In this document: in pieces, positions 7,732 through 31,208 of the stretch | How positions within the stretch are numbered: the stretch's first letter is position 1 | How the letters are laid out: every line of letters starts with the position of its first letter | Made by a program: the position numbers and the translations under genes | Notes under the pieces: model-generated | What the model saw: the letters and a program-made list of their open reading frames with translations, nothing else | Told to the model about the DNA's origin: nothing | Databases searched by the model: none | Assembly: GCA_030425545.1 (NCBI GenBank) | Contig: JAUIAC010000003.1 | Span: 3,857 to 67,856 of the forward strand | DNA from: a bacterium | GTDB lineage: Bacteria > Myxococcota_A > UBA9042 | Direction: 5' to 3' | Length of the DNA stretch: 64,000 bases

Positions 7732-9924
7732 TCAGACCCCGGCGACCTGCACTGGCACGCCCGAGAGCGCTGCGTTGCCCGAGAGCTGGTCGAGCAGGGC
7801 TGCGTCGGTCACGTCGTTGATGCTGACCCCTGGGCTGGCCGACGCGAGGGTCTGGCGGGTGTCGTCCGCGGTGTGGCCCCAGCCGTGCGGCAGCGACACG
7901 ACGCCGGGCATCATCTGATCGGTCAGGTGGACCGGGACCTCCACGGCGCCGACCCGGGAGCTCAGCCGCACGCGCTGCCCTGCGCTGAGCCCGCGTCGCT
8001 CGGCGTCGTCCGGGTGCATGTGCAGCACGCAGCGCGGGCGCCCCTTCATCAGCGTCGCGGCGTTGTGGAGCCAGCTGTTGTGGTCCTGCAGGGAGCGGCG
8101 ACCGATCAGCCGCAGCGGGTGCGCTCGCCCTGGATCGCCGACGGGCGGGTCGGGGTCGCGCCGGGAGCGCGCGCGGCCGTCTTCCCGCCGCAGCGCCGTG
8201 TCCAGCCGGTCGAAGTCCCGCAAGATCAGCGCCGGAGCCAGCTGCAGCACGCCGCCCTTGGCGCGAATGCCCTCCGGCAGCTGCGGCCGCAGCGGGCCCA
8301 GATCGACGCCGTGGGGCTCGCCCCGCAGCAGCGCCACGCTCAGCCCGTCGCCGCGCAGGAGCCGCCCGGACCACTTGCCGTAGGGGCCGCGCCGCAGCGC
8401 CATGTCGAGCTGCTGCGTCGGCGACATCGCCAGGGTGGCGCGCCGCTCGAGCTTGCCCAGGGTCGAGACCTTGCCGCCGGGGCCCAGTCGACGGGCGAGG
8501 GCGGCGAAGATCTCCGCGTCGGTGCGCGCGTTGTCATGTCCGGGGAAGAGGGCGTCGGCGAAGCGCGCCGTGTTGCGCACGGCCAGCCCGTGGAAGATGA
8601 GGTCGTAGTGGGGCACCTCGAGGCCGATCTTCGGAGGCAGGATCACGTGCGCGTGGCGCGTGGTCTCGTTGAGGTAGGGGTCCACGGAGACCATGAACTC
8701 GAGCTGGCCCAGGGCGGCGCCCAGACGCTTGCCGTTGGGGGTGCTCAGCACCGGGTTGCCGGCCGAGGTCACCAGGCCGCGGACCTGCCCCGGGCCCGGC
8801 GTGTCGATCTCCTCGGCCAGCGCGGCCACAGGCAGCTCACCGCCGAACTCCGGCAGGTCGCGGACTCGGCTGCGCCAGCGGTCGTGGCCTCCGCGGCTGG
8901 TCCGCGCGAGCACGTCCACCGCGGGCGAGGCGAACATCATGCCGCCGGGTCGGTCGAGGTTGCCGGTGACCAGGTTGAGCGCGGTCACGAGCCACATGCC
9001 AAGGGCGCCGAACTCAGCGGTGCACACCCCCATGCGACCGTAGACCACCGCCGAGTCGGCCGCTGTCACCGCGTCGGCCATGGCCTCGATGGCCGGCGCG
9101 TCGATGCCGACGGCCTGTGCGACCCGCGCCGCGGGGAAGCGCGCCACCGCCTCGGCCAGCGCGTCCAGCCCGGCCACGTGCTCGGCGAGGTGCCTGAGCC
9201 GCGGCCCACAGGTGGCGAAGACGCGATGGATCAGGGCCGCCAGCAGCATCGCGTCGGTGCCGGGGCGGATGAAGTGATGCGCGTCGGCCCGCGCCGCCGT
9301 CTCGCTCCGGCGGGGGTCGACCACCACCAGCTGCCCACCCCGCTCCCGCAGCTGGTTGAGCCGACGGCGCATGCCGGGCGCGCTCATGATCGAGCCGTTG
9401 CTGACGATGGGGTTGGCGCCGAGCACCAGCATGTGCTGCGTGCGGTCCACGTCGGGCACCGGCAGCATGAACTGGTGACCGAAGAGGTAGTAGCCGACGA
9501 AGTGGTGGGGCAGCTGGTCCACCGAGGTCGCGGAGTAGCGGTTGCGCGTGCGCAGGCTGCGCACCATGTGCGGGCTCATGAGCATCGTGCCCAGGTTGTG
9601 CACGCTGGGGTTGCCTTGATAGACCGCGACCGCGTCCTGCCCGTGGCGCGCCTGGACCGCCCGCAGCTCGCTGGTCACCAGGTCGAAGGCCTCGTCCCAA
9701 CCGATGTCCTGCCACCCCGAGTCGGTGCGCCGCAGCGGCGTGCGCAGGCGGTCGCCGTCCTCATGCAGGTCGCGCAGGGCGAAGGCCTTGGGGCAGATGT
9801 GGCCCTGGCTCAGCGGGTCGTCTTTGTCCCCGCGGATGTCGAGCACGCGCGTGTCGTCGTGGGTGATGACCAGGCCACACATGGCCTCGCACAGGTTGCA
9901 GCTGCGGTGGTGGGTCGCGCTCAT
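7732..9924 (-). CDS. Molybdopterin-dependent oxidoreductase (MopB superfamily; formate dehydrogenase/BisC-like catalytic subunit), cytoplasmic
   Basis: N-terminal 4Fe-4S motif C-N-L-C-E-A-M-C. Length of 730 aa. ATG at 9924 is preferred over the TTG at 9984. No Tat signal. Confidence 0.8.
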   Translation of the reverse strand: MSATHHRSCNLCEAMCGLVITHDDTRVLDIRGDKDDPLSQGHICPKAFALRDLHEDGDRLRTPLRRTDSGWQDIGWDEAFDLVTSELRAVQARHGQDAVAVYQGNPSVHNLGTMLMSPHMVRSLRTRNRYSATSVDQLPHHFVGYYLFGHQFMLPVPDVDRTQHMLVLGANPIVSNGSIMSAPGMRRRLNQLRERGGQLVVVDPRRSETAARADAHHFIRPGTDAMLLAALIHRVFATCGPRLRHLAEHVAGLDALAEAVARFPAARVAQAVGIDAPAIEAMADAVTAADSAVVYGRMGVCTAEFGALGMWLVTALNLVTGNLDRPGGMMFASPAVDVLARTSRGGHDRWRSRVRDLPEFGGELPVAALAEEIDTPGPGQVRGLVTSAGNPVLSTPNGKRLGAALGQLEFMVSVDPYLNETTRHAHVILPPKIGLEVPHYDLIFHGLAVRNTARFADALFPGHDNARTDAEIFAALARRLGPGGKVSTLGKLERRATLAMSPTQQLDMALRRGPYGKWSGRLLRGDGLSVALLRGEPHGVDLGPLRPQLPEGIRAKGGVLQLAPALILRDFDRLDTALRREDGRARSRRDPDPPVGDPGRAHPLRLIGRRSLQDHNSWLHNAATLMKGRPRCVLHMHPDDAERRGLSAGQRVRLSSRVGAVEVPVHLTDQMMPGVVSLPHGWGHTADDTRQTLASASPGVSINDVTDAALLDQLSGNAALSGVPVQVAGV

Positions 9925-21376: not shown

Positions 21377-22327
21377 CTACCAGCTGACGCCGTAGCGCAG
21401 CGAGAACGCGGGCAGCAAGGCGTAGTCAGCGGTGGCGGGATAAGCGTCGCCGAGCAGGAGCAGCGCGCCGACCTCGAGCCGCAGCAGACGGTCCCGGCCT
21501 GGACCGTGGCGCCACGTTGCGCCGCCGCCGGCGCCCCACCACACCGCCCGGACGGCGCGGTCGGCGGCGAAGAGGCCCCGGCCCGAGCCGAGGGCCACAG
21601 ACGTCGGCGAGAGCCGCGCGTCGCTCGGGCCGCCGGCGTTGCCCAGCGCGGCGGTCCACAGGTCGAGCGTGACGGGGCCGAGGCGATGCGGCGCGCCGTG
21701 CACACCGATCCGCCAGCTGAAGCCGCCGCTGTCGACAGCGGTGCCGACGCCGACCGAGACGCTGCGCTCGCCACCGAGCAGGGCGTCGACGCAGACCAGC
21801 AGCCCGACCGGGAAGGCGACCCCTGCGGTGACATCGAGGGGGACCTCGCCGGTGCGCGACGCCGCTGAGGTGACGTCGGTGTCCGCGTTGCCGTTGCGGA
21901 GCGAGGGCGGGGCCGGGAGCACGCAGAGCCCGTCCTGACAGCTGCGCTCAATGGGGCAGTGCAGGTCTTCGGTGCAGGCCCGCCGGACGCAGCGGTGGCC
22001 CCGGCACAGCCGGCCGGCGGCGCAGTCGGCGCTCGCCTCGCATTGGACGACGACGCAGCGGTGGGCGCGGCACAGGCGGGTGCCGAGGCAGTCGCCGTCC
22101 TGGTTGCAGGGGCCGGCGCTGGCGTGAAAGGGCGGCGCCGCGCGGATCGGGGTCGCGGACGCCGTGTAGAGCAGGGCCGCGGCCGCGGCGAGTCCGACCG
22201 CCAGGGCGCGCGGGCGATGGCCTTGCGGCGGAGGGCTGGCAGTCTTCGGACCCATGCCGGCCAGCCTACGGCGTGCCAGAGGCGGTGCAAAGCGCCGAAG
22301 AACGCGCCGCAAGACGCCTCGCCGCAT
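21377..22327 (-). CDS. Putative outer-membrane beta-barrel protein with an N-terminal Cys-rich triple repeat
   Basis: Three CxxxxDCxxGxxCxxxRCV repeats, then Gly/aromatic-rich strands ending in ...LRYGVSW, a C-terminal aromatic OMP signature. The start may instead be the internal Met near 22255. Confidence 0.45.
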   Translation of the reverse strand: MRRGVLRRVLRRFAPPLARRRLAGMGPKTASPPPQGHRPRALAVGLAAAAALLYTASATPIRAAPPFHASAGPCNQDGDCLGTRLCRAHRCVVVQCEASADCAAGRLCRGHRCVRRACTEDLHCPIERSCQDGLCVLPAPPSLRNGNADTDVTSAASRTGEVPLDVTAGVAFPVGLLVCVDALLGGERSVSVGVGTAVDSGGFSWRIGVHGAPHRLGPVTLDLWTAALGNAGGPSDARLSPTSVALGSGRGLFAADRAVRAVWWGAGGGATWRHGPGRDRLLRLEVGALLLLGDAYPATADYALLPAFSLRYGVSW

Positions 22328-22402: not shown

Positions 22403-23581
22403 TTAGCGCAGAACGACCCGGCTCACCAGGTCGCGCGTCATGTTCTTCTGATGCGCCTCGTTCGTCCCACCACCAATCTCCAGCAGCTTCGCGTCACGCC
22501 ACAGGCGCTCGACCTTGTATTCGGCCACGTAGCCGAAGCCGCCCAGCACCTGAATCGCGCGGTCGGCCACGTTCTTCGCCATGGTCGAGCAGTAGAGCTT
22601 CACCCCGTCGCTGTCGATGCGGTTGCCGAAGCTGTCCAGCGCCATGTTCGCCGCCGTGGCGTACACGTAGCTCCGCCCGGCCATGTACTCCGCGTACGAC
22701 TCCGCGATGTGCCGCTGAATCTGGCCAAAGCGGTTGATCGGCTGCCCGAAGGCCTGCCGCTCGTTGGCGTAGCGGTTCATGATCTCCACGCTGCGCCGCG
22801 CGATGCCCAGGCTCATGGCGGCCAGGGTCAGGCGCTCCAGCTCCAGGTTGCGCATCATCGACCGCACCGCGTTGCCCTCGCTGCCCACGAGGTTGGCCGC
22901 GGGCACCCGCACGTCCTCGAACACCAGCTCGGCCGTCGTCGACGCCCGCATGCCCAGCTTGCCTTTGATCTTCTGCCCGAGCTTGAAGCCAGGCATGCCC
23001 TTCTCCACCAGGAAGAGGCTCAGCGCCTTGGCGCCCTTGCCCCCGGTCCGCGCGTAGACCAGGAACACGTCGCCGAGGTCCGTGTCCGTGACGGCGCCGT
23101 TGGTGATCCACATCTTGGCGCCGTTCAGCACCCAGTCGTCCCCGTCCCGCACCGCTGTGGTGCTCATGCCCAGCACGTCGGTCCCGGCGCCGGGCTCGCT
23201 CATGCACATGCCGCCGATCTTCTTCCCGCTGCAGGCGTCCGGCAGCAGGCGGGCTCGCTGCTCGTCGTTGCCGTTGAGCGCCAGGTTGTTCACGAAGAGC
23301 ATGCTGTGGGCGAGGTAGGCCAGGCAGAAGCCGGGGTCCGCCGCCGACAGCTCCTCGTGCACGATCACCGCCGCAGCGGCGTCCATCCCGGAGCCGCCGA
23401 AGCGCTCGGGGACCGTGATGCCCAGCAGCCCGAGGTCGCCGAGCTTGCGGAAGAGCGGGATGTTGAATCGCTCGGCGTGATCGTGGGCCTCCGCCTGCGG
23501 ATCGACCTCTTTCTCGGCGAACTCACGCACCATCGCGCGCAGGGCCTGATGCTCTTCGGTGGGGTTGAACAGATCGCTCAT
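22403..23581 (-). CDS. Acyl-CoA dehydrogenase, isovaleryl-CoA dehydrogenase-like
   Basis: 392-aa ACAD with conserved GGSGMD, CMSEPGAGTD and WITNG... segments and a C-terminal catalytic Glu region. Best resemblance is to IVD/LiuA-type enzymes. Confidence 0.85.
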   Translation of the reverse strand: MSDLFNPTEEHQALRAMVREFAEKEVDPQAEAHDHAERFNIPLFRKLGDLGLLGITVPERFGGSGMDAAAAVIVHEELSAADPGFCLAYLAHSMLFVNNLALNGNDEQRARLLPDACSGKKIGGMCMSEPGAGTDVLGMSTTAVRDGDDWVLNGAKMWITNGAVTDTDLGDVFLVYARTGGKGAKALSLFLVEKGMPGFKLGQKIKGKLGMRASTTAELVFEDVRVPAANLVGSEGNAVRSMMRNLELERLTLAAMSLGIARRSVEIMNRYANERQAFGQPINRFGQIQRHIAESYAEYMAGRSYVYATAANMALDSFGNRIDSDGVKLYCSTMAKNVADRAIQVLGGFGYVAEYKVERLWRDAKLLEIGGGTNEAHQKNMTRDLVSRVVLR

Positions 23582-23722
23582 CGGGGCCTCCAGGCTGCGG
23601 GTCGTCGGGGTCTATCACACGGCGTGAGGCCGCGGAAGCAGGGCGCGTCGGCGCACCGGCGCTATGTTGTACCCTCCCCACGACGCCCTGACCGGCCCCT
23701 GAGCGCGCCACCGGACCGACCC

Positions 23723-24199
23723 ATGCCCACCGCCACCGCCACCGACCTCCTCCTCCTCCTGCAGCGGGCTGCGGCGGCCCGCGATCCCGACGTCCGCGCC
23801 GACACCCTCGACGAGGCGATGCGCTCCGGCCTGCCCGCGGCCGCGTCCGATGTCGTCGCGCTGGCCCACACCGCCGAGCAGCGTGCGGCTGTGTTGATGT
23901 GGATGCGGCTCTTCCCAGGTGCCGCCGACCTCGCGTTCATCGCCGCGTGTCAGGCCGCCGAGACCCCCGCGGTCCGCGCCGCCGCCGCGTCGGCGCTGCA
24001 GCTGGTCCCCCTCGACGCCGCCGCCGGGCGATATCAGCAGGCGTTGCGCGACCCCGACGTGTCGGTGCGCGTACGCGCCGTGCGAACCCTCGGAGAGCGC
24101 CGCGAGCCCGCCGCGTCGCCGCTGTTGACCGGCGCGCTCGCCGACCCAGACGAGGGCGTGCGTTCCTGGGCGACGTGGGCGTTGGAGCGCTGCCAGTGA
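23723..24199 (+). CDS. HEAT-repeat (PBS-lyase-type) protein, 158 aa
   Basis: Repeated DPDVRVRxxAxxALG-like units (DPDVSVRVRAVRTLG, DPDEGVRSWATWAL). Its TGA overlaps the GTG of the downstream gene (GTGA). Confidence 0.65.
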   Translation: MPTATATDLLLLLQRAAAARDPDVRADTLDEAMRSGLPAAASDVVALAHTAEQRAAVLMWMRLFPGAADLAFIAACQAAETPAVRAAAASALQLVPLDAAAGRYQQALRDPDVSVRVRAVRTLGERREPAASPLLTGALADPDEGVRSWATWALERCQ

Positions 24200-26067
24200 G
24201 CTCGCGCGGTCGCCCCGACAGCCGCGCCCCCGACGCGGGTCGCCCCCAGCCTGCCTCCGGATCAGCCCACGCGCCGACGCCGCGGTCTCGGTGGCAGCTC
24301 CCCAACCTCGGCCTCGGGCTGGGGCTGCGGCCGGAGCACGTCCACGACATCCTCGACACCCAACCCGACGTGGGTTGGTTCGAGGTCATCACGGAGAACG
24401 TGCTGCACCACGAGGGCTGGTTCAGGTCTGCCGTCGACGCGGTCCGCGAGCGCTATCCCGTGGTGCTCCACGGCGTGTCGCTGTCCATCGGTTCGAGCGA
24501 CCCCCTCCCGCTGGCCTACCTGCGCGCGGTGAAGACGCTGGCCGACGAGCTCGAGGTGGCCTGGGTGAGCGATCACGTCTGCTGGACCGGCGTCGGTGGC
24601 CGCAACAGCCACGACCTGCTCCCCGTGCCCTACGACGAGCGCAGCCTGCGGTGGATCGTCGACCGCGTCCGCCAGGTCCAGGAGATCCTGGAGCGGCCGA
24701 TCATGCTCGAGAACCCGTCGAGCTACCTTGGCTTCACCGGCTCGACCCTGACCGAGTGGGACTTTCACGCGCGGCTGGCGAGGGAGGCGGACTGCGGTCT
24801 CCTGCTCGACGTCAACAACGTCTTTGTCAGCAGCGTGAACCATGGCTTCGACCCGGGCGCGTGGCTGGCCGCGGTGCCGTGGGACCGCGTCGCGCACCTG
24901 CATGTCGCCGGACACTCCGACCTGGGGACCCACCTGCTCGACACGCACATCGGCCCGGTCTGCGACGCGGTGTGGCAGCTGCTTGGCCGGGCGCTGCAGG
25001 CGGGGGGGCCGCGGCCGGTGATGCTCGAGTGGGACGACGAGATCCCCGCGTTCGCCGAGGTGTGGCAGGAGGCGCAGCGCGCTCAAGCCGCTCTGGACGC
25101 TGTTGATTCTTGGTCGGGCCGGTCGACAATGGACCATGTCTCACAGCGAGACATTGGCTCCAAGGGCCCGCCGCTGTCGCGTGGCCGGGACAGGCAGGGC
25201 GCCGACCAAACGCAGGCTGAGCTCGCGCAGGCGCAGACCTGGCTTTTTGACCTGGTCTCGGGGCAGCCCAACGCCGACACGCGCCGCATCGCCAGCGAGG
25301 TCACGCCCACCCGCCGGCTCACGGCCGCGGAGCGGGTCGACATCTATCGCGACATGATCCGCGTCCGCTTCCTGGAGGCCATGGAGCTTGATTTTGTCGC
25401 CGTCCAGCGCGCGCTCGGGGAGGAGCGCTTCGCCGCGCTCGTGGCCCGCTACCTGCGTCAGCACCCGTCGCAGCACTGGGCGCTGGAACAGCTGGGCGCG
25501 GCCTTCCCCGGCTGGCTGCGGTCCCAGGCGGACGAGGGTGTCGACCCGGCGTGGATCGCCGACGCGGCGACGCTGGAGTGGGCGCTCGTTCGTGCAGGCT
25601 GGCCGCCCGAACAGCCGGTCTTCGACACCGCGGCGCTCGCCGCCGTGCCACCGGAGTCCCAGGGCCAGATTCGCCTGCAGGCGGCTGCGACCACCGAGCT
25701 CTGGGACGTGTCCACGCCGGCCTTCGACGCCGTCGCCCGAGCGTGGGGCCACGCGGCCGCGGACACGCCGGCGGCGTCGGGGTCACCGGCGCCGTCCACC
25801 GCCACCCACGGAGACGTGGGGAACGCTGTGACAGCCCTCGTCTATCGCGACGGCTGGCAGGTCAAGCTCCGCGCCCTCCCCGCGACCGAGGCTGCGGTGT
25901 TGCGGCCGCTGGTCGCCGGCGCCTCGCTCGCCGCCGCGCTCGAGGCCGCCGCGGCCGCGCACGACATCGACGTCATCATCGCGTCGCTGGGCAGCTGGAC
26001 CCAGCGCTGGGCGCGTGAGCGTGTGTTGACCGGCCTGGCCAGCCGCCCTGCGACGCGCACCGCATGA
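24196..26067 (+). CDS. Fusion of a DUF692 (MNIO, multinuclear non-haem iron oxidative enzyme; MbnB/TglH/BufB family) domain and a DUF2063 (MbnC/BufC-like partner) domain
   Basis: LPNLGLGLGLRPEHV... is a classic DUF692 TIM-barrel start. Further DUF692 segments are LENPSSY, LLLDVNNVFVSS and HLHVAGH. The C-terminal ~300 aa (RRLTAAERVDIYRDMIRVRFLEAMEL...) match DUF2063. There is no stop between the domains. The proposed GTG start at 24196 overlaps the HEAT gene's stop. Confidence 0.8.
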   Translation: MSSRGRPDSRAPDAGRPQPASGSAHAPTPRSRWQLPNLGLGLGLRPEHVHDILDTQPDVGWFEVITENVLHHEGWFRSAVDAVRERYPVVLHGVSLSIGSSDPLPLAYLRAVKTLADELEVAWVSDHVCWTGVGGRNSHDLLPVPYDERSLRWIVDRVRQVQEILERPIMLENPSSYLGFTGSTLTEWDFHARLAREADCGLLLDVNNVFVSSVNHGFDPGAWLAAVPWDRVAHLHVAGHSDLGTHLLDTHIGPVCDAVWQLLGRALQAGGPRPVMLEWDDEIPAFAEVWQEAQRAQAALDAVDSWSGRSTMDHVSQRDIGSKGPPLSRGRDRQGADQTQAELAQAQTWLFDLVSGQPNADTRRIASEVTPTRRLTAAERVDIYRDMIRVRFLEAMELDFVAVQRALGEERFAALVARYLRQHPSQHWALEQLGAAFPGWLRSQADEGVDPAWIADAATLEWALVRAGWPPEQPVFDTAALAAVPPESQGQIRLQAAATTELWDVSTPAFDAVARAWGHAAADTPAASGSPAPSTATHGDVGNAVTALVYRDGWQVKLRALPATEAAVLRPLVAGASLAAALEAAAAAHDIDVIIASLGSWTQRWARERVLTGLASRPATRTA

Positions 26068-26094
26068 CGCGCCGCGCGCGGGCATTGACGCGCT

Positions 26095-26289
26095 GTGTCA
26101 TAGCGTGACACTGCCGCAGCGGCGCCCGTCCCTACGGAGGCGATCGGCGGAAAATCAAGCTGTTCGAGGCAAGAGAGGCCCGCGGGGCCAGCGCGCGAAG
26201 GCGCGGCAACCGTGTGTCGCACTGTGACACCCGGCCCCCAGCGCCCGATTGGGCCGCGGTGTCGGGCCTTGGTGTCGCAGGGCGAGACA
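26095..26289 (+). promoter_or_regulatory. Three GTGTC-N5-9-GACAC palindromes, a candidate upstream activator (enhancer-binding protein) site cluster
   Basis: gtgtcaTAGCGtgacac at 26095-26111, gtgtcGCACTGTgacac at 26213-26229, and gtgtcGCAGGGCGAgacac at 26271-26289. They lie 110-300 bp upstream of the sigma-54 -24/-12 element. Confidence 0.35.
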
Positions 26290-26397
26290 CCACTGTCATG
26301 GAACAAGGGGGCAGAGCCGCAGGGGGTGGTCTGAGTTCAAAAATAATAACCAATAATAGCATATGGTTAAGAGAAAGTGGACAAATCTGGGGAACAA

Positions 26398-26413
26398 TGG
26401 CCCGGGTGTTGCA
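26398..26413 (+). promoter_or_regulatory. Sigma-54 (RpoN) -24/-12 promoter
   Basis: TGGCCCGGGTGTTGCA against the consensus TGGCACG-N4-TTGCW. It matches 15 of 16 positions with exact GG...GC spacing. It is preceded by an unusually AT-rich 60-bp tract (aaaataataaccaataatagcatatgg), consistent with an IHF or DNA-bending site. Confidence 0.5.
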
Positions 26414-26423
26414 ATTACAACCA

Positions 26424-26683
26424 GGCAACAACGGAGCAAGCATCATTCCCATGAGTTCCTTCAATCCCGCACTGATATCCTCACACCCCTCCACCGCTCC
26501 CGCGGTGGCCTGTCCACTTCGTCGGCTAGAGTCACGGTGACCTGCCCGCTGCGCATCGTTGGGAAGTGCGCAGCCGGACATCACTGGATGACACCGTAAC
26601 GCTCTGCCGGCGCCTACCTCGACCAACTCTTGCTTCCAAAGGGCAGCGGCCCCGAGTCACCTCGGGGCCGCTCTCCCTTTTGG
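26424..26683 (+). ncRNA. Candidate sigma-54-dependent small transcript (sRNA or leader), ~255 nt, running from the predicted start site to an intrinsic terminator
   Basis: It is bounded by the sigma-54 promoter and a strong hairpin. GC content is locally low and third-codon-position GC is low. The only start-anchored ORF is 29 aa (MSSFNPALISSHPSTAPAVACPLRRLESR), whose codon usage is atypical for this genome. Confidence 0.3.
26645..26683. terminator. Bidirectional rho-independent terminator
   Basis: agcggccccgag-TCAC-ctcggggccgct is a 12-bp perfect stem. It is followed by ctcccTTTTgg on the plus strand and by cccTTTgg on the minus strand. It lies 35 bp downstream of the stop of the 26715..31208 minus-strand gene. 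Confidence 0.6.
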
Positions 26684-26714
26684 ACCCGCCGCCTGAGCGC
26701 ACGGACCAGCTGTC

Positions 26715-29700
26715 TCAGGGACCGACGCAGCCTGGGCCAGCCGTCTTGCTCCACGTGACGCCTGGCAGGGTCAGCTTGAAGCCCTTGATCTGGTCGGTCG
26801 CCACAGCGCCGCTGCCCTCGCTCAGCTCGAACTGCCACGTCCCGACCGGCTCCAGGGTCGTGGGCGGCACGAACGCGGCGCCGTAGCGCATCTCGGGTGA
26901 CCAGCGCAGGGCCGCCAGCTCCGCGTCGAGGGGATGGGTCTTCCCGTCATACTGGTCGCCGAAACGCAGCGGACAGCTGGCCGACCAGCCGCTACCGACG
27001 CCCGAAAAGGAGCGCGCCAGCGCGCCGTCGACAAAGAGCGAGCCTGTGCCGTCGCCATGGGCCTGCAGGGCGAAGTGCTGCCACACACCGGCGCGCCACA
27101 CCACCTTGCTCGGGCTCGCCTTCTCCCCAGCGCCGCCGAGCTTCGACTGGTCCAACCCGGCCGCCCCCACACCCACGCGCCACGCCAGCGAGGGCTTCAT
27201 CGAGGCACAGCCAGCGCCCGTGCCGGGCTCGTCCACCGCGACCAGGGCGCCAAAGCCGGACGTCGGCAGCGCCTTGACCCGCGCCCACCCCTCCAGGGTC
27301 CAGGCGCCGGTGTCGTAGTGCGCGGTGTTCTTGCCGAGGAGGCCCGCGGGCTTGGTCCAGGCCACGCTGGTGCAGTCCGGCGCGACGTTGGGCGCGCAGA
27401 GCACGTTGCACTTCTTGGGCCAGGCGCCGTTGGCCATGCCGTTGTCACAGGCCTCCCACCGGGCCGCCTGGCCGTCGCCACAGGTCGCCGAGCTGGCCAG
27501 GTCGCCGTAGCACTGGTCCGCGATGAAGTCGCCCGCCAGCAGCTTGGTCGCCACGCTGTGGCCGCTGTCGTCGCTGGTCAGCCCGAGCGGGCTGTCGAAG
27601 CGCCACAGACCCCGGGTCGCTGCGTCGGGCAGCAGGCGCCGCCGCGGCGTGAACGACGCGCCGTAGCGCGCGCCGGCGCTGACGCGCACCTCGTCGAGCC
27701 GCCCCGGCAGCCGGTTCGCGGCGATGGGCGTCTCCTTCTTGAACACGCAGCCCTGGCCGGTGCCCTTGGCGCCGCCGCCGAGGAAGAGCACCTCCTTGTC
27801 GATCTGCCAGCCGGGCAGGGCCGCGGGCAGCTGCGCCGACGCCGAGGCCTCCAGCTTGCCGTCGACGTAGACCCGCAGCGGCGCACCCTGCGCGAAGCCA
27901 GCGACCGCGGCCACGTGGTACCAGACGCCCGCCTTGACGGTGGTCTTCGCGAAGAGCGGCGGCAGCGGGAAGCGCACCAGCCCGAAGCGTGTGCCGTTCG
28001 TCGTCTGCGACACCATCAGCGAGAAGATCCCACACGACGCGCCGAGGAGCTCGAAGGTCCCCGTGGTGTCGTCCACCCGCACCCAGGCCTCGAGCGTCAT
28101 CGTGCACGTGGGGCACACCGTGTCGGCGGCCCACTCGGGGAAGCCCGCCGTCTGCATCGCGCCCTGGCCGTTGACGTGGAAGCTCCGCTGCAGCCGGCAC
28201 CCCTCGCACCCGTCACACGCGGCGCCGTTCTTGTCGTCGCAGGTCTCGAGCGCGGTGTCGACCTGCCCGTCGCCGCACACCGCCGCCGCTGCGCTGCGCC
28301 CGAGGCAGCTGTCCTTCCCGAGCAGCGCGCCCTTCAGGGTCAGGTCCAGGCCCTGCGGTCCAGCGTCCTTGGCGTCGCCGTCGAAGCGCCACAGCGCCAC
28401 CGTGGTGGGGTCCGGCGAGGTGGTGCGCGCCGGGACGAAGGCGCCCCCGTGCAGCGCGGCGCGGGCCACGTGTACCTCGTCGATCTGGCCCTTGAACTCG
28501 CCGCCCTTGGCGTCCCAGTAGGTGCGCCCCACGGTCACACCGGCCCCGGGCACGTCGAAGCGCGGCTTGAAGAGCTTGCCACCGCCGGCGGGCAGGCCCC
28601 CGACGTAGAGCCGCACCGTGTCGCCCACGACCACCGCCGCGACGTGCGCCCACTGATTCGCAGGCACGACCTTGGCCTTTCCCCCCACCTTGGCCGCGAT
28701 GAACTCGGGCCCCAGCGGCGACACGTGGCTGAAGAGCAGCTGCCCGCCGCTCAGCGAGAGCGTGAAGGTGCTCGCCCCCAGCGCCTTGCTCGCCTTGGAC
28801 ACGATGGTCAGCTCGGCGAAGACCGTGGTCGGCCGCACCCAGGCCTCCACCGTCAGGTCGCCCACCAGGCCAAAGGGGCCGGCGAGCCCGTCTTTTCCGG
28901 GCGTTGGCGCCGCCACCTGAGCGTAGGCGGCCCCGTCCAAGCTCAGGTTGCCCCGCGGCTGGCACGCCTCGCACCCGTCGCACACCGCGCCGTTGCCGTC
29001 GTCACAAGCCTCGCCCTTGCCCACGTAGCCGTCGCCGCAGGAGGGCACCACGCACTTCTTCGCCACGCAGTGCTTGCCCCCGCCGCAGCTCGCGCCGTCC
29101 TTCACGCCCTCGAACACGCACCCCTTGCTCCCGCAGCTGTCGTCGGTGCACGGGTTGCCGTCGTCGCACACCAGCTTCGTCCCGACGCAGCTGCCGCCCT
29201 TGCAGCCGTCCTGTCCCGTACACGGGTCACCGTCGTCGCACGACTTGCCCACCTCGGGCACCTGCTCGCAGCCACTCGCGGCGTTGCAGCTGTCCTTCGT
29301 GCACACCTTGCCGTCGTCGCAGTCGAGCGCCTTGCCGGCCACGCACTTGCCCGCCTGGCAGGCGTCGCCGGCCGTGCACTTGCTCTGGTCCGCGTCGCAG
29401 GGCTTGCCGTCCTGCGGGCCGCTGACATGGCTGCACGCCCCGGTCTTGGGGTCGCACGCGTCCACCGTACACACCTCGCCGTCGTCGCAGGACTTGCTGG
29501 CGCCCGCCGTGCACAGCCCGTTCTTGCAGCTGTCTCCCACGGTGCAGGCGTCTCCGTCTTTGTCACACGGCGCGATGTTGTTGGCGCTCTGGCAGCCCTT
29601 GCTCGGGTCGCAGCTGTCGTTGGTGCAGGGGTTCTTGTCGTCACAGTCCACCTTGGCGCCGGGCGCGCACACCCCAGCCTTGCAGACGTCGCCGACCGTG

Positions 29701-31208
29701 CAGACGGACCCGTCGGCGTCGCAGGCCTTGTTGTCCTGGGCCGGCACCGAGCCGCACTTGCCCGTCTTCGCGTCGCAGGCCGTCTTGGCGCATGTGGTGT
29801 CCTTGCTGGTGTCGCAGGTCACCACCGACTTCGGGTCGATCTTGCACACGAAGGGGGCCTTGGCCTTGTCGCAGTAGAGCGTCCCGTTGCAGAGGTCACC
29901 GTCTTCCTTCGCGGCGCACTGGGCGTCGGTCGTGCACGCGCACACGTTGCCACCCGGCTTGCAGCCGCCCTTGTCGCACGCGTCGCCGTTGGTGCACGGG
30001 TTGCCGTCTTCACAGGGGCCCGCCTTGGGCGTGTTGGTGCACCCCGCCGTGGTGTCGCTGCCCGGCGCCTTCGGGTCGCACCCGTCGGTGGTGCAGGGCT
30101 CGCTGTCGTCACAGGTGACGCTGACGTCGATCGACAGCCCCACGCACGCGCCGTTGCCGTCGCACAGGTCGTTCGCTGTGCAGGCGTTGCTGTCGTCACA
30201 GGGCTTCTTGTGGGGCGTGTAGACGCAGCCCTTGAGCTTGTCGCACGCGTCGGTCGTGCACGGGTTGGCGTCGTCGCAGGGCACGACCTGGCCCAGGCAG
30301 CCGCCCTTGGCGTCACAGGCGTCGGCCGACGTGCACGCGTCACCGTCGTCGCAGGCCCCCGCCACCGGCGTGTGACTGCACTGCGTCCCACCTTGGATGC
30401 AGGCGTCGGTCGTACACACGTTGTCGTCGTCGCACAGCCCCTCGTCCGTGGCGCCGTTGCAGTCGTTGTCGAGCCCGTCGCAGAGCTCACTCACCGCAGG
30501 TGGTGCGGTGCAGTCCCCCAGCGCGCCAGCGCTCGTGCAGGTGCGGCTGCCGGGGCAGGTCCCCAGCTCGCCGACCGCCTGACACACGGTCGACAGCTTC
30601 AGCGTGGCCGACCGCGGTGAACACGGGCACGCCAGGTCCTTGCGAACACAGGCTCTCCGCGCCTCGCCCGCGTGGGTCTTGCCGTCGTTGCAGACGAAGT
30701 CGCCAGGGCAGTCCGCGTCCACCGCGCAGGTCGACCCACAGAAGCTGCCTTCGGTCGTGCCGTAGCGCATGCAGTACGAGCCGTGGTCGCCCAGGGCCTC
30801 CTGGCACGTGGAGTCGGCGCTGCACGGCGCGCACAGGAAGCCCCACTTGGGCACGCAGAGCTGCACGGCGTCCGCCCCACCGGTGCTCACCGTCTGGCAG
30901 TCGAAGCCGTCGGGACACGCGTCCACGCAGGTCTTGGCGCACTGCTTGCCGGCCGGCGTGTGGATGCACAGGTTGTTGTCGCAGTCGTCCGACGCGTCAC
31001 AGGGGCAGCCGGCGCCTCCCGGGCACAGCGCCGCGGTGTCTGGCGCCCCGGCGTCGTCGCTCGTGGTGTCTGGCGACGTCGTGTCGACCTGCCCCACGTC
31101 CTCGCTCGCGTCGGTGGACACGTCCGTCGCGCCCTGGCCACCGGGGGGCCCCTCGCCGCAGGCCACCAGACACGCACACAACGCCAGGACTCCGAAGCCA
31201 GTTCTCAT
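26715..31208 (-). CDS. Giant secreted Cys-rich lipoprotein (1497 aa) with about 12 CDDGNPCTxDxC-type repeats, a MopE-like metal-binding motif, two myxobacterial Cys-rich (TIGR02232-like) repeats and three LamG/ConA-like domains
   Basis: The lipobox is MRTGFGVLALCACLVACGE. CDGLDNDCNGATDEGLCDDDNVC is a MopE-like putative metal-binding motif (PF11617-like). AVCGDGQVDTALETCDDKNGAACDGCEGC and SCGDGYVGKGEACDDGNGAVCDGCEAC are the myxobacterial repeats. Three ...EAWVR...LYVGG LamG-like segments are present. The opposite-strand ORF 26934..30620 is a shadow. Confidence 0.75.
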   Translation of the reverse strand: MRTGFGVLALCACLVACGEGPPGGQGATDVSTDASEDVGQVDTTSPDTTSDDAGAPDTAALCPGGAGCPCDASDDCDNNLCIHTPAGKQCAKTCVDACPDGFDCQTVSTGGADAVQLCVPKWGFLCAPCSADSTCQEALGDHGSYCMRYGTTEGSFCGSTCAVDADCPGDFVCNDGKTHAGEARRACVRKDLACPCSPRSATLKLSTVCQAVGELGTCPGSRTCTSAGALGDCTAPPAVSELCDGLDNDCNGATDEGLCDDDNVCTTDACIQGGTQCSHTPVAGACDDGDACTSADACDAKGGCLGQVVPCDDANPCTTDACDKLKGCVYTPHKKPCDDSNACTANDLCDGNGACVGLSIDVSVTCDDSEPCTTDGCDPKAPGSDTTAGCTNTPKAGPCEDGNPCTNGDACDKGGCKPGGNVCACTTDAQCAAKEDGDLCNGTLYCDKAKAPFVCKIDPKSVVTCDTSKDTTCAKTACDAKTGKCGSVPAQDNKACDADGSVCTVGDVCKAGVCAPGAKVDCDDKNPCTNDSCDPSKGCQSANNIAPCDKDGDACTVGDSCKNGLCTAGASKSCDDGEVCTVDACDPKTGACSHVSGPQDGKPCDADQSKCTAGDACQAGKCVAGKALDCDDGKVCTKDSCNAASGCEQVPEVGKSCDDGDPCTGQDGCKGGSCVGTKLVCDDGNPCTDDSCGSKGCVFEGVKDGASCGGGKHCVAKKCVVPSCGDGYVGKGEACDDGNGAVCDGCEACQPRGNLSLDGAAYAQVAAPTPGKDGLAGPFGLVGDLTVEAWVRPTTVFAELTIVSKASKALGASTFTLSLSGGQLLFSHVSPLGPEFIAAKVGGKAKVVPANQWAHVAAVVVGDTVRLYVGGLPAGGGKLFKPRFDVPGAGVTVGRTYWDAKGGEFKGQIDEVHVARAALHGGAFVPARTTSPDPTTVALWRFDGDAKDAGPQGLDLTLKGALLGKDSCLGRSAAAAVCGDGQVDTALETCDDKNGAACDGCEGCRLQRSFHVNGQGAMQTAGFPEWAADTVCPTCTMTLEAWVRVDDTTGTFELLGASCGIFSLMVSQTTNGTRFGLVRFPLPPLFAKTTVKAGVWYHVAAVAGFAQGAPLRVYVDGKLEASASAQLPAALPGWQIDKEVLFLGGGAKGTGQGCVFKKETPIAANRLPGRLDEVRVSAGARYGASFTPRRRLLPDAATRGLWRFDSPLGLTSDDSGHSVATKLLAGDFIADQCYGDLASSATCGDGQAARWEACDNGMANGAWPKKCNVLCAPNVAPDCTSVAWTKPAGLLGKNTAHYDTGAWTLEGWARVKALPTSGFGALVAVDEPGTGAGCASMKPSLAWRVGVGAAGLDQSKLGGAGEKASPSKVVWRAGVWQHFALQAHGDGTGSLFVDGALARSFSGVGSGWSASCPLRFGDQYDGKTHPLDAELAALRWSPEMRYGAAFVPPTTLEPVGTWQFELSEGSGAVATDQIKGFKLTLPGVTWSKTAGPGCVGP

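Follow-up and report, generated by a model that had tools for sequence, protein, structure and literature searches.

The gene considered here lies at positions 24196-26067 (+) of a 64,000-nucleotide stretch of contig JAUIAC010000003.1 (GenBank assembly GCA_030425545.1, Myxococcota_A), which at its full length we call the window. It encodes, in one chain of 623 aa, a multinuclear non-haem iron oxidase (MNIO, or DUF692) domain followed by a DUF2063-containing partner, and its start codon overlaps the stop codon of a small HEAT-repeat gene. The protein joins the known bufferin/oxazolin maturase family, of which it represents a recurrent single-chain form without a precursor gene in cis.

Genes and features of the locus

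Because open frames are abundant at the 70-75% G+C of the window, G+C by codon position was used to tell real genes from spurious open reading frames (ORFs). By this measure the 158-aa HEAT-repeat ORF has a third-position G+C (GC3) of 0.88-0.92 in its own frame, and public gene callers predict the identical gene; at ~24300 the coding frame passes to that of the fused ORF, with GC3 of 0.90-0.98. The features immediately around the two genes are these:

22403-23581 (-): acyl-CoA dehydrogenase (ACAD) gene, identified by Pfam; divergent neighbour
23582-23722 (no strand): intergenic region of 141 bp between the ACAD (-) and HEAT (+) genes, which diverge; no coding frame signal
23723-24199 (+): HEAT-repeat protein of 158 aa with two Cys (C76, C157) and without a signal peptide, identified by Pfam HEAT_2
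24184-24199 (+): translational coupling site, with GGAG at 24184-24187 and a GTG start (24196-24198) overlapping a TGA stop (24197-24199)
24196-26067 (+): fusion of an MNIO and a PME-type 1 (BufB-BufC-like) partner in a single chain of 623 aa, identified by Pfam, NCBIfam, fused homologues and AlphaFold
26715-31208 (-): giant Cys-rich lipoprotein of 1497 aa with 123 Cys and a lipoprotein signal peptide; convergent neighbour of the fused gene

An earlier reading made from the sequence alone had reported the 158-aa and 623-aa ORFs, the GTGA overlap between them and the 141-bp gap upstream, and all of these are present in the sequence. The GGAG stands 8 nt from the GTG start of the fused ORF, for which an alternative in-frame GTG is possible at 24175. 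The 141-bp intergenic region is presumed to be the promoter region of the HEAT-MNIO pair, and no sigma-70 consensus was found in it. A gap of 647 bp separates the fused gene from the giant lipoprotein gene, whose product carries Dicty_CTDC, DUF4215, Laminin_G_3 and myxo_disulf_rpt (TIGR02232) repeats by Pfam and NCBIfam. In a precomputed Pfam annotation of all genes, none encoding DoxX (BufD), an extracytoplasmic function (ECF) sigma factor/NrsF or an anti-sigma factor occurs within +/-10 kb. Four orthologous loci, namely L087/L092 (enzyme P0004; L092 duplicates L087), L088 (P0010) and L098 (P0012), share the gene order ACAD (-), fused MNIO (+), giant Cys-rich lipoprotein (-) and PP2C phosphatase (-).

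Domains, fold and recurrence of the fused protein

The 623-aa chain divides into four parts:

24313-25095 (+): MNIO/DUF692 TIM-barrel catalytic domain, residues 40-300, identified by PF05114, NF050167, Foldseek and motifs
25117-25203 (+): low-confidence linker, approximately residues 308-336, with an AlphaFold predicted local distance difference test score (pLDDT) of 58-63 for residues 311-340
25300-25518 (+): DUF2063 (HvfC_N) helical domain, residues 369-441, identified by PF09836
25672-26040 (+): RRE-like domain of beta-sheet and helices, approximately residues 493-615, from the secondary structure of the model, with a disordered insert at 525-541

Searches with hidden Markov models bear out the assignment of both DUF692 and DUF2063 that had been made from the sequence alone. 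PF05114 (MbnB_TglH_ChrH, formerly DUF692) matches over positions 2-262 of its 263 with E 4.3e-102 (341.3 bits against a cutoff of 25), and PF09836/DUF2063 matches with E 1.1e-18 (67.7 bits against 27.2). The competing assignment, a generic xylose-isomerase TIM barrel, fails, as AP_endonuc_2 scores 28.4 bits, under its cutoff of 31.1. Among the more specific models, the protein exceeds the cutoff of the NCBIfam equivalog NF050167 (MNIO_BufB, "MNIO family bufferin maturase"), scoring 331.8 bits against 310. The cutoffs of NF003818 HvfB (240.2 bits against 360), of NF050145 RiPP_RRE_HvfC (E 3e-12, 46.9 bits against 142) and of the MbnB model TIGR04159 (54.8 bits against 325) are not reached, and the scores of the NCBIfam models for ApyH and ChrH fall far under theirs. 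We therefore assign the protein to the bufferin-type maturases with very high confidence.

The active-site signature is complete. Invariant in 28 homologues are H92 (HG), D126-H127 (SDH), E172 (LEN), D205 and N208 (DxxN), H236 (HVAG), D249 and H251 (DTH) and E278 (EWD), and these seven invariant motifs align with the same motifs in MbnB, TglH and the DUF692 structure 3BWW. By analogy with MbnB, we take these residues to be the iron ligands.

An AlphaFold2 model built from the alignment of the 28 sequences describes one compact protein of two halves, with a full-length pLDDT of 88.1 and a predicted template-modelling score (pTM) of 0.87; its low-confidence stretch, at approximately residues 310-340, is the linker, the sequence and length of which differ across homologues. 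In Foldseek searches the N-terminal half best matches 3BWW (E 9e-17, target-normalized TM score 0.89), followed by TglH (8HCI/8HI7) and MbnB (7TCR, 7DZ9, 7FC0), and sugar epimerases rank after these MNIO structures with E >=1e-7. The C-terminal half (residues 335-623), modelled separately at a pLDDT of 81.8, finds just three significant fold matches in the PDB: TglI 8HI7_A (E 4e-4), TglI 8HCI_A (E 8e-4) and NGO1945/3DEE (E 7.5e-4, TM 0.68), the last being the archetype of the DUF2063+RRE partner proteins. A comparison of the sequence profile of this half with the PDB yielded nothing real; it was the fold search that gave matches.

That the two domains share one ORF had been put forward as an unusual architecture. 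The fusion is real, but it is not unusual. Searched against 5.8 billion proteins, the fused protein has 745 relatives at E <=1e-10, and in about 108 of the 120 best PF05114 and PF09836 share a single chain of 530-650 aa. A frameshift or assembly artefact, which had been considered as the source of the fusion, is ruled out by this many fused homologues together with the one compact AlphaFold model. Fused relatives come from Myxococcales, Actinomadura, Alphaproteobacteria, Rickettsiales and Alcanivorax, Gammaproteobacteria thus being included, and NCBI names some of them "MNIO family bufferin maturase" and others "DUF692 family protein". At the best 80 loci of GTDB species representatives the fused gene occurs in 7, and the rest have separate, adjacent B and C genes. 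As a side observation, a contig labelled Klebsiella pneumoniae (L001/L096, CAMDBH010000071.1) carries a Myxococcota-like fused MNIO of 42% identity together with an ACAD and a Dicty_CTDC-type protein; this bin is probably mislabelled or contaminated.

We found no discussion of natural MNIO-DUF2063 fusions in the literature searched. For an engineered HvfB-HvfC fusion, full activity, higher than that of the co-expressed pair, has been shown (bioRxiv 10.64898/2026.07.17.739211); the N-to-C order of this fusion is that of the window protein, and its activity shows that the architecture works. The B-C fusion, built by biochemists in 2026 as a means of stabilising HvfBC, has arisen repeatedly in nature, and the natural fusions, linkers included, offer ready-made, well-behaved constructs for mechanistic study. 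Those of Alcanivorax (P0047), Alphaproteobacteria (P0074) and Myxococcales (P0002) have a two-domain single chain identical in plan to the window protein's, with 35-50% identity to it over at least 90% of its length. Where they differ is in their surroundings, since the proteobacterial fused genes stand directly behind BufA-type precursors and the window gene does not.

Among characterised systems, BufB/BufC of Caulobacter vibrioides (PMC11626156) belongs to the same enzyme family and has the same DUF2063+RRE (PME-type 1) partner, and a like conversion of Cys to 5-thiooxazole on Sec-signal precursors would be expected of the window protein. The latter differs in being one chain, in having no bufA, DoxX or sigma/anti-sigma genes nearby, and in the HEAT gene upstream. 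The oxazolin system HvfB/HvfC of Haemophilus influenzae resembles it in that its EGKCG repeats recall the GCGGKG precursors of the window enzyme's relatives; unlike HvfB/HvfC, the window fusion is natural, has a linker of ~30-60 residues, misses the equivalog cutoffs and lacks a cis precursor. TglH/TglI (pearlin) and MbnB/MbnC (methanobactin) match in structure, TglH and MbnB in the N-terminal half and TglI in the C-terminal half, whereas sequence identity is only ~20%, signal peptides are missing from their precursors and none of their partners is a bona fide DUF2063 protein. MovX, compared here by its description in the literature, likewise joins an MNIO to a peptide-recognition module in one polypeptide; in MovX that module is an RRE/winged helix-turn-helix alone, while the window protein fuses the whole DUF2063+RRE partner.

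Precursor genes and the probable substrate

The absence of a precursor gene near the enzyme, remarked on in the sequence-only reading, extends to every frame of the window. When 17 precursor sequences of the Buf1, Buf2 and GCGGKG types were compared by phmmer with every segment of 20 aa or more in the six frames, no credible bufferin/oxazolin-like match emerged from the 64 kb (best E 0.029), and a motif scan of the same 64 kb for Cys-Gly repeats found nothing. Nor does a BufA precursor (DUF2282/Buf1, Buf_6/12Cys/Buf2 or EGKCG type) occur at the syntenic loci L087/L092, L088 and L098. More broadly, among 12 distinct Myxococcota fused-clade members examined, 10 lack a cis precursor in the fetched flanks (the window protein, P0003, P0004, P0007, P0008, P0010, P0012, P0014, P0016 and P0025). 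In proteobacteria, a BufA-type precursor lies directly upstream of five of six fused genes (L034, L046, L048, L065, L079), and most split BufB genes, those of Polyangiaceae included, stand directly behind such precursors; one Polyangiaceae precursor matches the NCBIfam BufA2 model with E 9.5e-12, which is under that model's cutoff.

The two Myxococcota members that do have a neighbouring precursor are informative. P0002, from a Myxococcales metagenome-assembled genome, is the closest relative of the window protein in each of its halves, at 67% identity for the MNIO and 41% for the partner, and its locus has sugar-transferase and hydrolase genes in common with that of the window. At 92 bp upstream of P0002 lies a gene for an 80-aa Sec-signal peptide that reads MNRKDMMKTLGIAVVGIALGAGTASAQS…KAGCGGKGGCGGKGGCGGKK… and then runs into a Lys-rich tail, with GCGGKG occurring three times; a homologous gene beside P0013, on the divergent strand, encodes a peptide of 70 aa (E 6e-19). 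The peptide genes that adjoin these two nearest informative relatives, each encoding a small Sec-signal peptide whose core is KAGCGGKGGCGGKGGCGGKK and whose tail is highly charged, are located as follows:

L082, 7666-7908 (+)
L090, 5495-5707 (-)

The GCGGKG peptides match no family in Pfam or NCBIfam and are probably an undescribed subtype of oxazolin/bufferin-like precursor. The nearest relatives thus define a compact precursor type that lacks a curated Pfam/NCBIfam model, composed of a Sec signal, (GCGGKG)x3 and a charged tail. The proposal that the system is non-canonical finds no clear support: the window locus does lack a cis precursor, but the precursors beside P0002 and P0013 are of the Sec-signal, Cys-repeat type. 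In a published survey, sizeable shares of bufferin precursors are genetically unlinked to MNIO genes, and Sec-signal precursors are associated with the MNIO enzymes whose partners are authentic DUF2063 (PME-type 1) proteins (PMC12452194).

Since a precursor gene is adjacent neither here nor in most of the Myxococcota clade, the substrate is likely to be encoded elsewhere. We lean, with moderate confidence, towards a BufB-BufC-type, Cys-oxidising maturase whose Sec-signal, Cys-repeat precursor lies at another place in the genome. In this mechanism an N-terminal multinuclear non-haem iron oxidase of BufB/HvfB type would be joined by a flexible linker to a partner of BufC/HvfC type, the DUF2063 helical and RRE-like peptide-binding domains of which would bind a ribosomal precursor with a Sec signal peptide. 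By analogy with the characterised maturases, the iron domain would use O2 to turn precursor Cys into heterocycles of the 5-thiooxazole type in the cytoplasm, and the modified product would be exported and might then act as a metal (copper) binder. The likely substrate would be a peptide such as those beside P0002 and P0013, that is, a Sec signal, KAGCGGKGGCGGKGGCGGKK and a charged tail. Among the substrates that the sequence-only reading had offered, a distally encoded peptide is accordingly the best supported, and the giant lipoprotein gains slightly from its recurrent adjacency. Either way, a Myxococcota clade with the fused enzyme at a fixed locus and no nearby precursor provides a clean test case for trans-encoded substrates that are peptides made by the ribosome and modified after translation (RiPPs), or for protein substrates.

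Several observations weigh against a trans-encoded bufferin-like precursor. The data comprise 64 kb of this organism's genome and yielded no precursor. The locus closest to the window by its flanking genes, L093 (a 9141-nt contig of ERZ889078), in which the ACAD is 86% identical at the aa level and the lipoprotein tail 84%, has no enzyme gene: 568 nt at ~437-1004 stand there against the window's 2.86-kb HEAT and MNIO segment, with 2.3 kb of HEAT and MNIO missing between the ACAD gene and a conserved downstream element described below. Either both genes are cleanly absent from L093 or there was an insertion in the window lineage. It follows from this absence that the enzyme gene can be dispensed with, and the window lineage could be in the course of losing it too. 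The recurrent giant Cys-rich neighbours are not explained by a precursor encoded in trans, and the tight GTGA coupling suggests some functional link between the HEAT protein and the enzyme in this genome. Finally, since no curated model matches the GCGGKG peptides, the label "oxazolin-like" derives from the resemblance of their motif to EGKCG repeats.

The HEAT gene, other candidate substrates and the downstream element

The HEAT protein matches Pfam HEAT_2 (PF13646) over residues 72-155 of its 158 (E 8.9e-14, 52 bits against 27.7), and in a homology search subject to a word-index limitation its sole database match was itself. The expectation of a conserved HEAT-MNIO-DUF2063 unit did not survive comparison of the neighbourhoods. 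At the syntenic loci the gap between the ACAD and MNIO genes is 88 bp (L087/L092), 69 bp (L088) or 126 bp (L098) and the HEAT gene is absent, and none of the seven clade loci outside the synteny group has a HEAT gene upstream of the fused MNIO. One of them, L096, has another tightly coupled upstream gene, the 206-aa product of which is unrelated to HEAT by BLASTP. The supplement of PMC12452194 was searched for HEAT, PF13646, Dicty_CTDC and DUF4215 and holds no association with them, its matches to "dicty" being to Dictyoglomus only. Because it is absent from the orthologous and other clade loci and has no homologue, the HEAT gene is best read as a recent lineage-specific insertion, transcribed together with the enzyme gene and translationally coupled to it, and not a conserved component of the system. 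Its role may be that of a scaffold, a chaperone or none.

Giant proteins of the Dicty_CTDC/DUF4215 type, with 8-16% Cys, recur in several gene contexts a few kb or less from fused genes of the Myxococcota clade:

L089, 2-5080 (+)
L089, 7816-10953 (-)
L094, 1818-4892 (-)
L090, 2-3214 (+)
L087, 8425-13416 (-)
L088, 8170-13011 (-)

Other substrates have to be set beside a trans-encoded precursor, the nearest at hand being the HEAT protein itself, whether as substrate or as an obligate new partner, with the pair forming a novel protein-modification system. Its gene sits where a precursor gene normally does, is coupled to the enzyme gene by the GTGA overlap with GGAG 8 nt upstream, and encodes two Cys, one of them penultimate (…ERCQ). 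The sequence-only reading had already named the HEAT protein as a possible substrate, but the option is weak: besides itself the protein has no database homologue, it is missing from every orthologous locus and from all other clade loci, the tightly coupled gene at L096 is unrelated to it, and it lacks a signal peptide, unlike the Sec-signal precursors with which authentic DUF2063 partners are associated (PMC12452194). We consider this decidedly improbable. Somewhat less so, though still unlikely, is oxidation by the fused enzyme of the Cys of the neighbouring giant lipoprotein (26715-31208) before its export. The lipoprotein is the convergent neighbour of the fused gene in every syntenic locus, and Dicty_CTDC giants also occur in other contexts, on both sides at L089, divergently upstream at L094, at L090 and at the edge of L001/L096, while none of 79 split or other-taxon loci has a protein with the repeat motif. 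The 64-kb window holds one such protein, adjoining the enzyme gene; its signal is of the Sec (lipoprotein) type, as PME-type 1 enzymes prefer; and MNIOs have been argued to be able to modify long proteins (PMC12452194). On the other hand, the convergent orientation means that the two genes are not co-transcribed, L093 retains the lipoprotein without the enzyme gene, and no such neighbour occurs at L082, L084, L095 or L097. The protein bears no similarity to bufferin cores, Dicty_CTDC-type repeats are classically disulfide-bonded, and recurrence was counted at the loci examined, without a genome-wide baseline of Dicty_CTDC density, so that an excess over chance cannot be claimed. An equally long shot is the broader proposal that the Myxococcota fused clade has switched from peptide to protein substrates, with thiooxazole-type modification of the Cys of Dicty_CTDC giants. 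Were it true, abundant "disulfide-repeat" surface proteins would become metal-binding or redox-active, HEAT could, in this genome, be a newly recruited adaptor, and MNIO chemistry would reach from peptides to large surface proteins.

It is similarly unlikely that the gene is an orphan relic, its precursor lost, its enzyme currently substrate-less and the gene persisting only transiently. The lack of a cis precursor in 10 of 12 clade members and the complete loss of the gene in L093 would fit such a history; yet the ORF is full-length with all invariant catalytic motifs, its GC3 of 0.9 is typical of the genome and its fold model is confident. The fused gene, moreover, keeps its syntenic position across four or more divergent genomes (46-48% identity), a retention that argues for long-term selection. 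Very unlikely, to our minds, is a further candidate substrate encoded downstream of the ACAD gene, a Sec-signal, Cys-rich protein (21377-22255 (-)) with a weak match to DUF7107 and a C-terminal end reading …RYGVSW. Its signal peptide is followed by 12 Cys in ~65 residues, and its gene is kept in the synteny group (L087/L092, L088, L098) and, like the enzyme gene, is missing from L093. That co-absence is weak evidence, however, since L093 is rearranged on the DUF7107 side, and the gene is limited to the one synteny group, being absent from all other clade loci; the protein resembles none of the known precursors.

A conserved non-coding element, which has homologues at four loci, lies in the gap that separates the MNIO gene from that of the giant lipoprotein:

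window, 26398-26683 (+)
L088, 7895-8170 (+)
L087 (= L092), 7824-8090 (-)
L093, 186-470 (-)
L098, 5999-6280 (+)

The element is conserved although the flanking proteins are just 46-57% identical. It opens with a -24/-12 promoter motif, TGGCCCGGGTGTTGC at 26398-26412, which in the other four versions reads TGGCAC-N5-TTGC; in a single sequence this motif is not significant, 0.41 chance matches being expected in the window. The element contains the invariant box GGAGCAAGCnnCATTCCCATGAGTTC. An invariant 5' box, GGAGCAAGC..ATTCC.ATGAGTTC, is complementary to the 3' box CTCTTGCT, which is complementary to GAGCAAG. Hairpins are fixed in position and vary in sequence (CCACCGC/GCGGTGG versus CCACTGC/GCAGTGG versus CTGCGA/TCGCAG); with five sequences, these compensatory changes are only suggestive of covariation. 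A strong intrinsic terminator at 26645-26672 is followed by a T-run. Rfam gave no match, either for the whole window at gathering thresholds or for 23500-26800 at E up to 1, nor did a tRNA scan. A metagenome scan for the RNA box returned three loci: L091, which is a chance match; a duplicate of L087; and L093, which is informative. The element's orientation with respect to the enzyme gene is inverted in L087/L092, and L093 retains the element although the enzyme gene is absent there. On these sequence features it is probably an unannotated structured small RNA of ~260 nt, dependent on sigma-54, and we read it as neither a precursor gene nor a part of the MNIO system.

A hidden precursor in this gap, in the form of a small Cys-containing ORF starting from an invariant ATG at 26451, is extremely improbable. 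In its favour, L087 and L088 have 40-aa ORFs ending …NREVxxCxCLGSIDRK, and L093 has one of 49 aa with three Cys. However, the five versions differ in the frame, length and stop of the ORFs from that ATG: that of the window is frameshifted, at 29 aa, and in L098 the conserved box falls in a different frame. Substitutions by codon position (8/11/13) show no third-position excess, the conserved boxes complement each other and show compensatory changes, and the small ORF has no signal peptide. The element, whose orientation in L087 is inverted, comes with a sigma-54-type promoter and a terminator of its own, and it occurs without the enzyme gene in L093. Small ORFs of the 647-bp gap were accordingly rejected as precursors. 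No Pfam/NCBIfam family matched them.

As a separate observation, at L094 (7855-10902) and L095 (6784-8855) the fused MNIO gene is followed by a gene for a Cob_adeno_trans protein (PF01923) and by genes for sigma-54 activators (AAA+); these activators are of interest in view of the RNA element, with its sigma-54-type promoter, in the window's synteny group.

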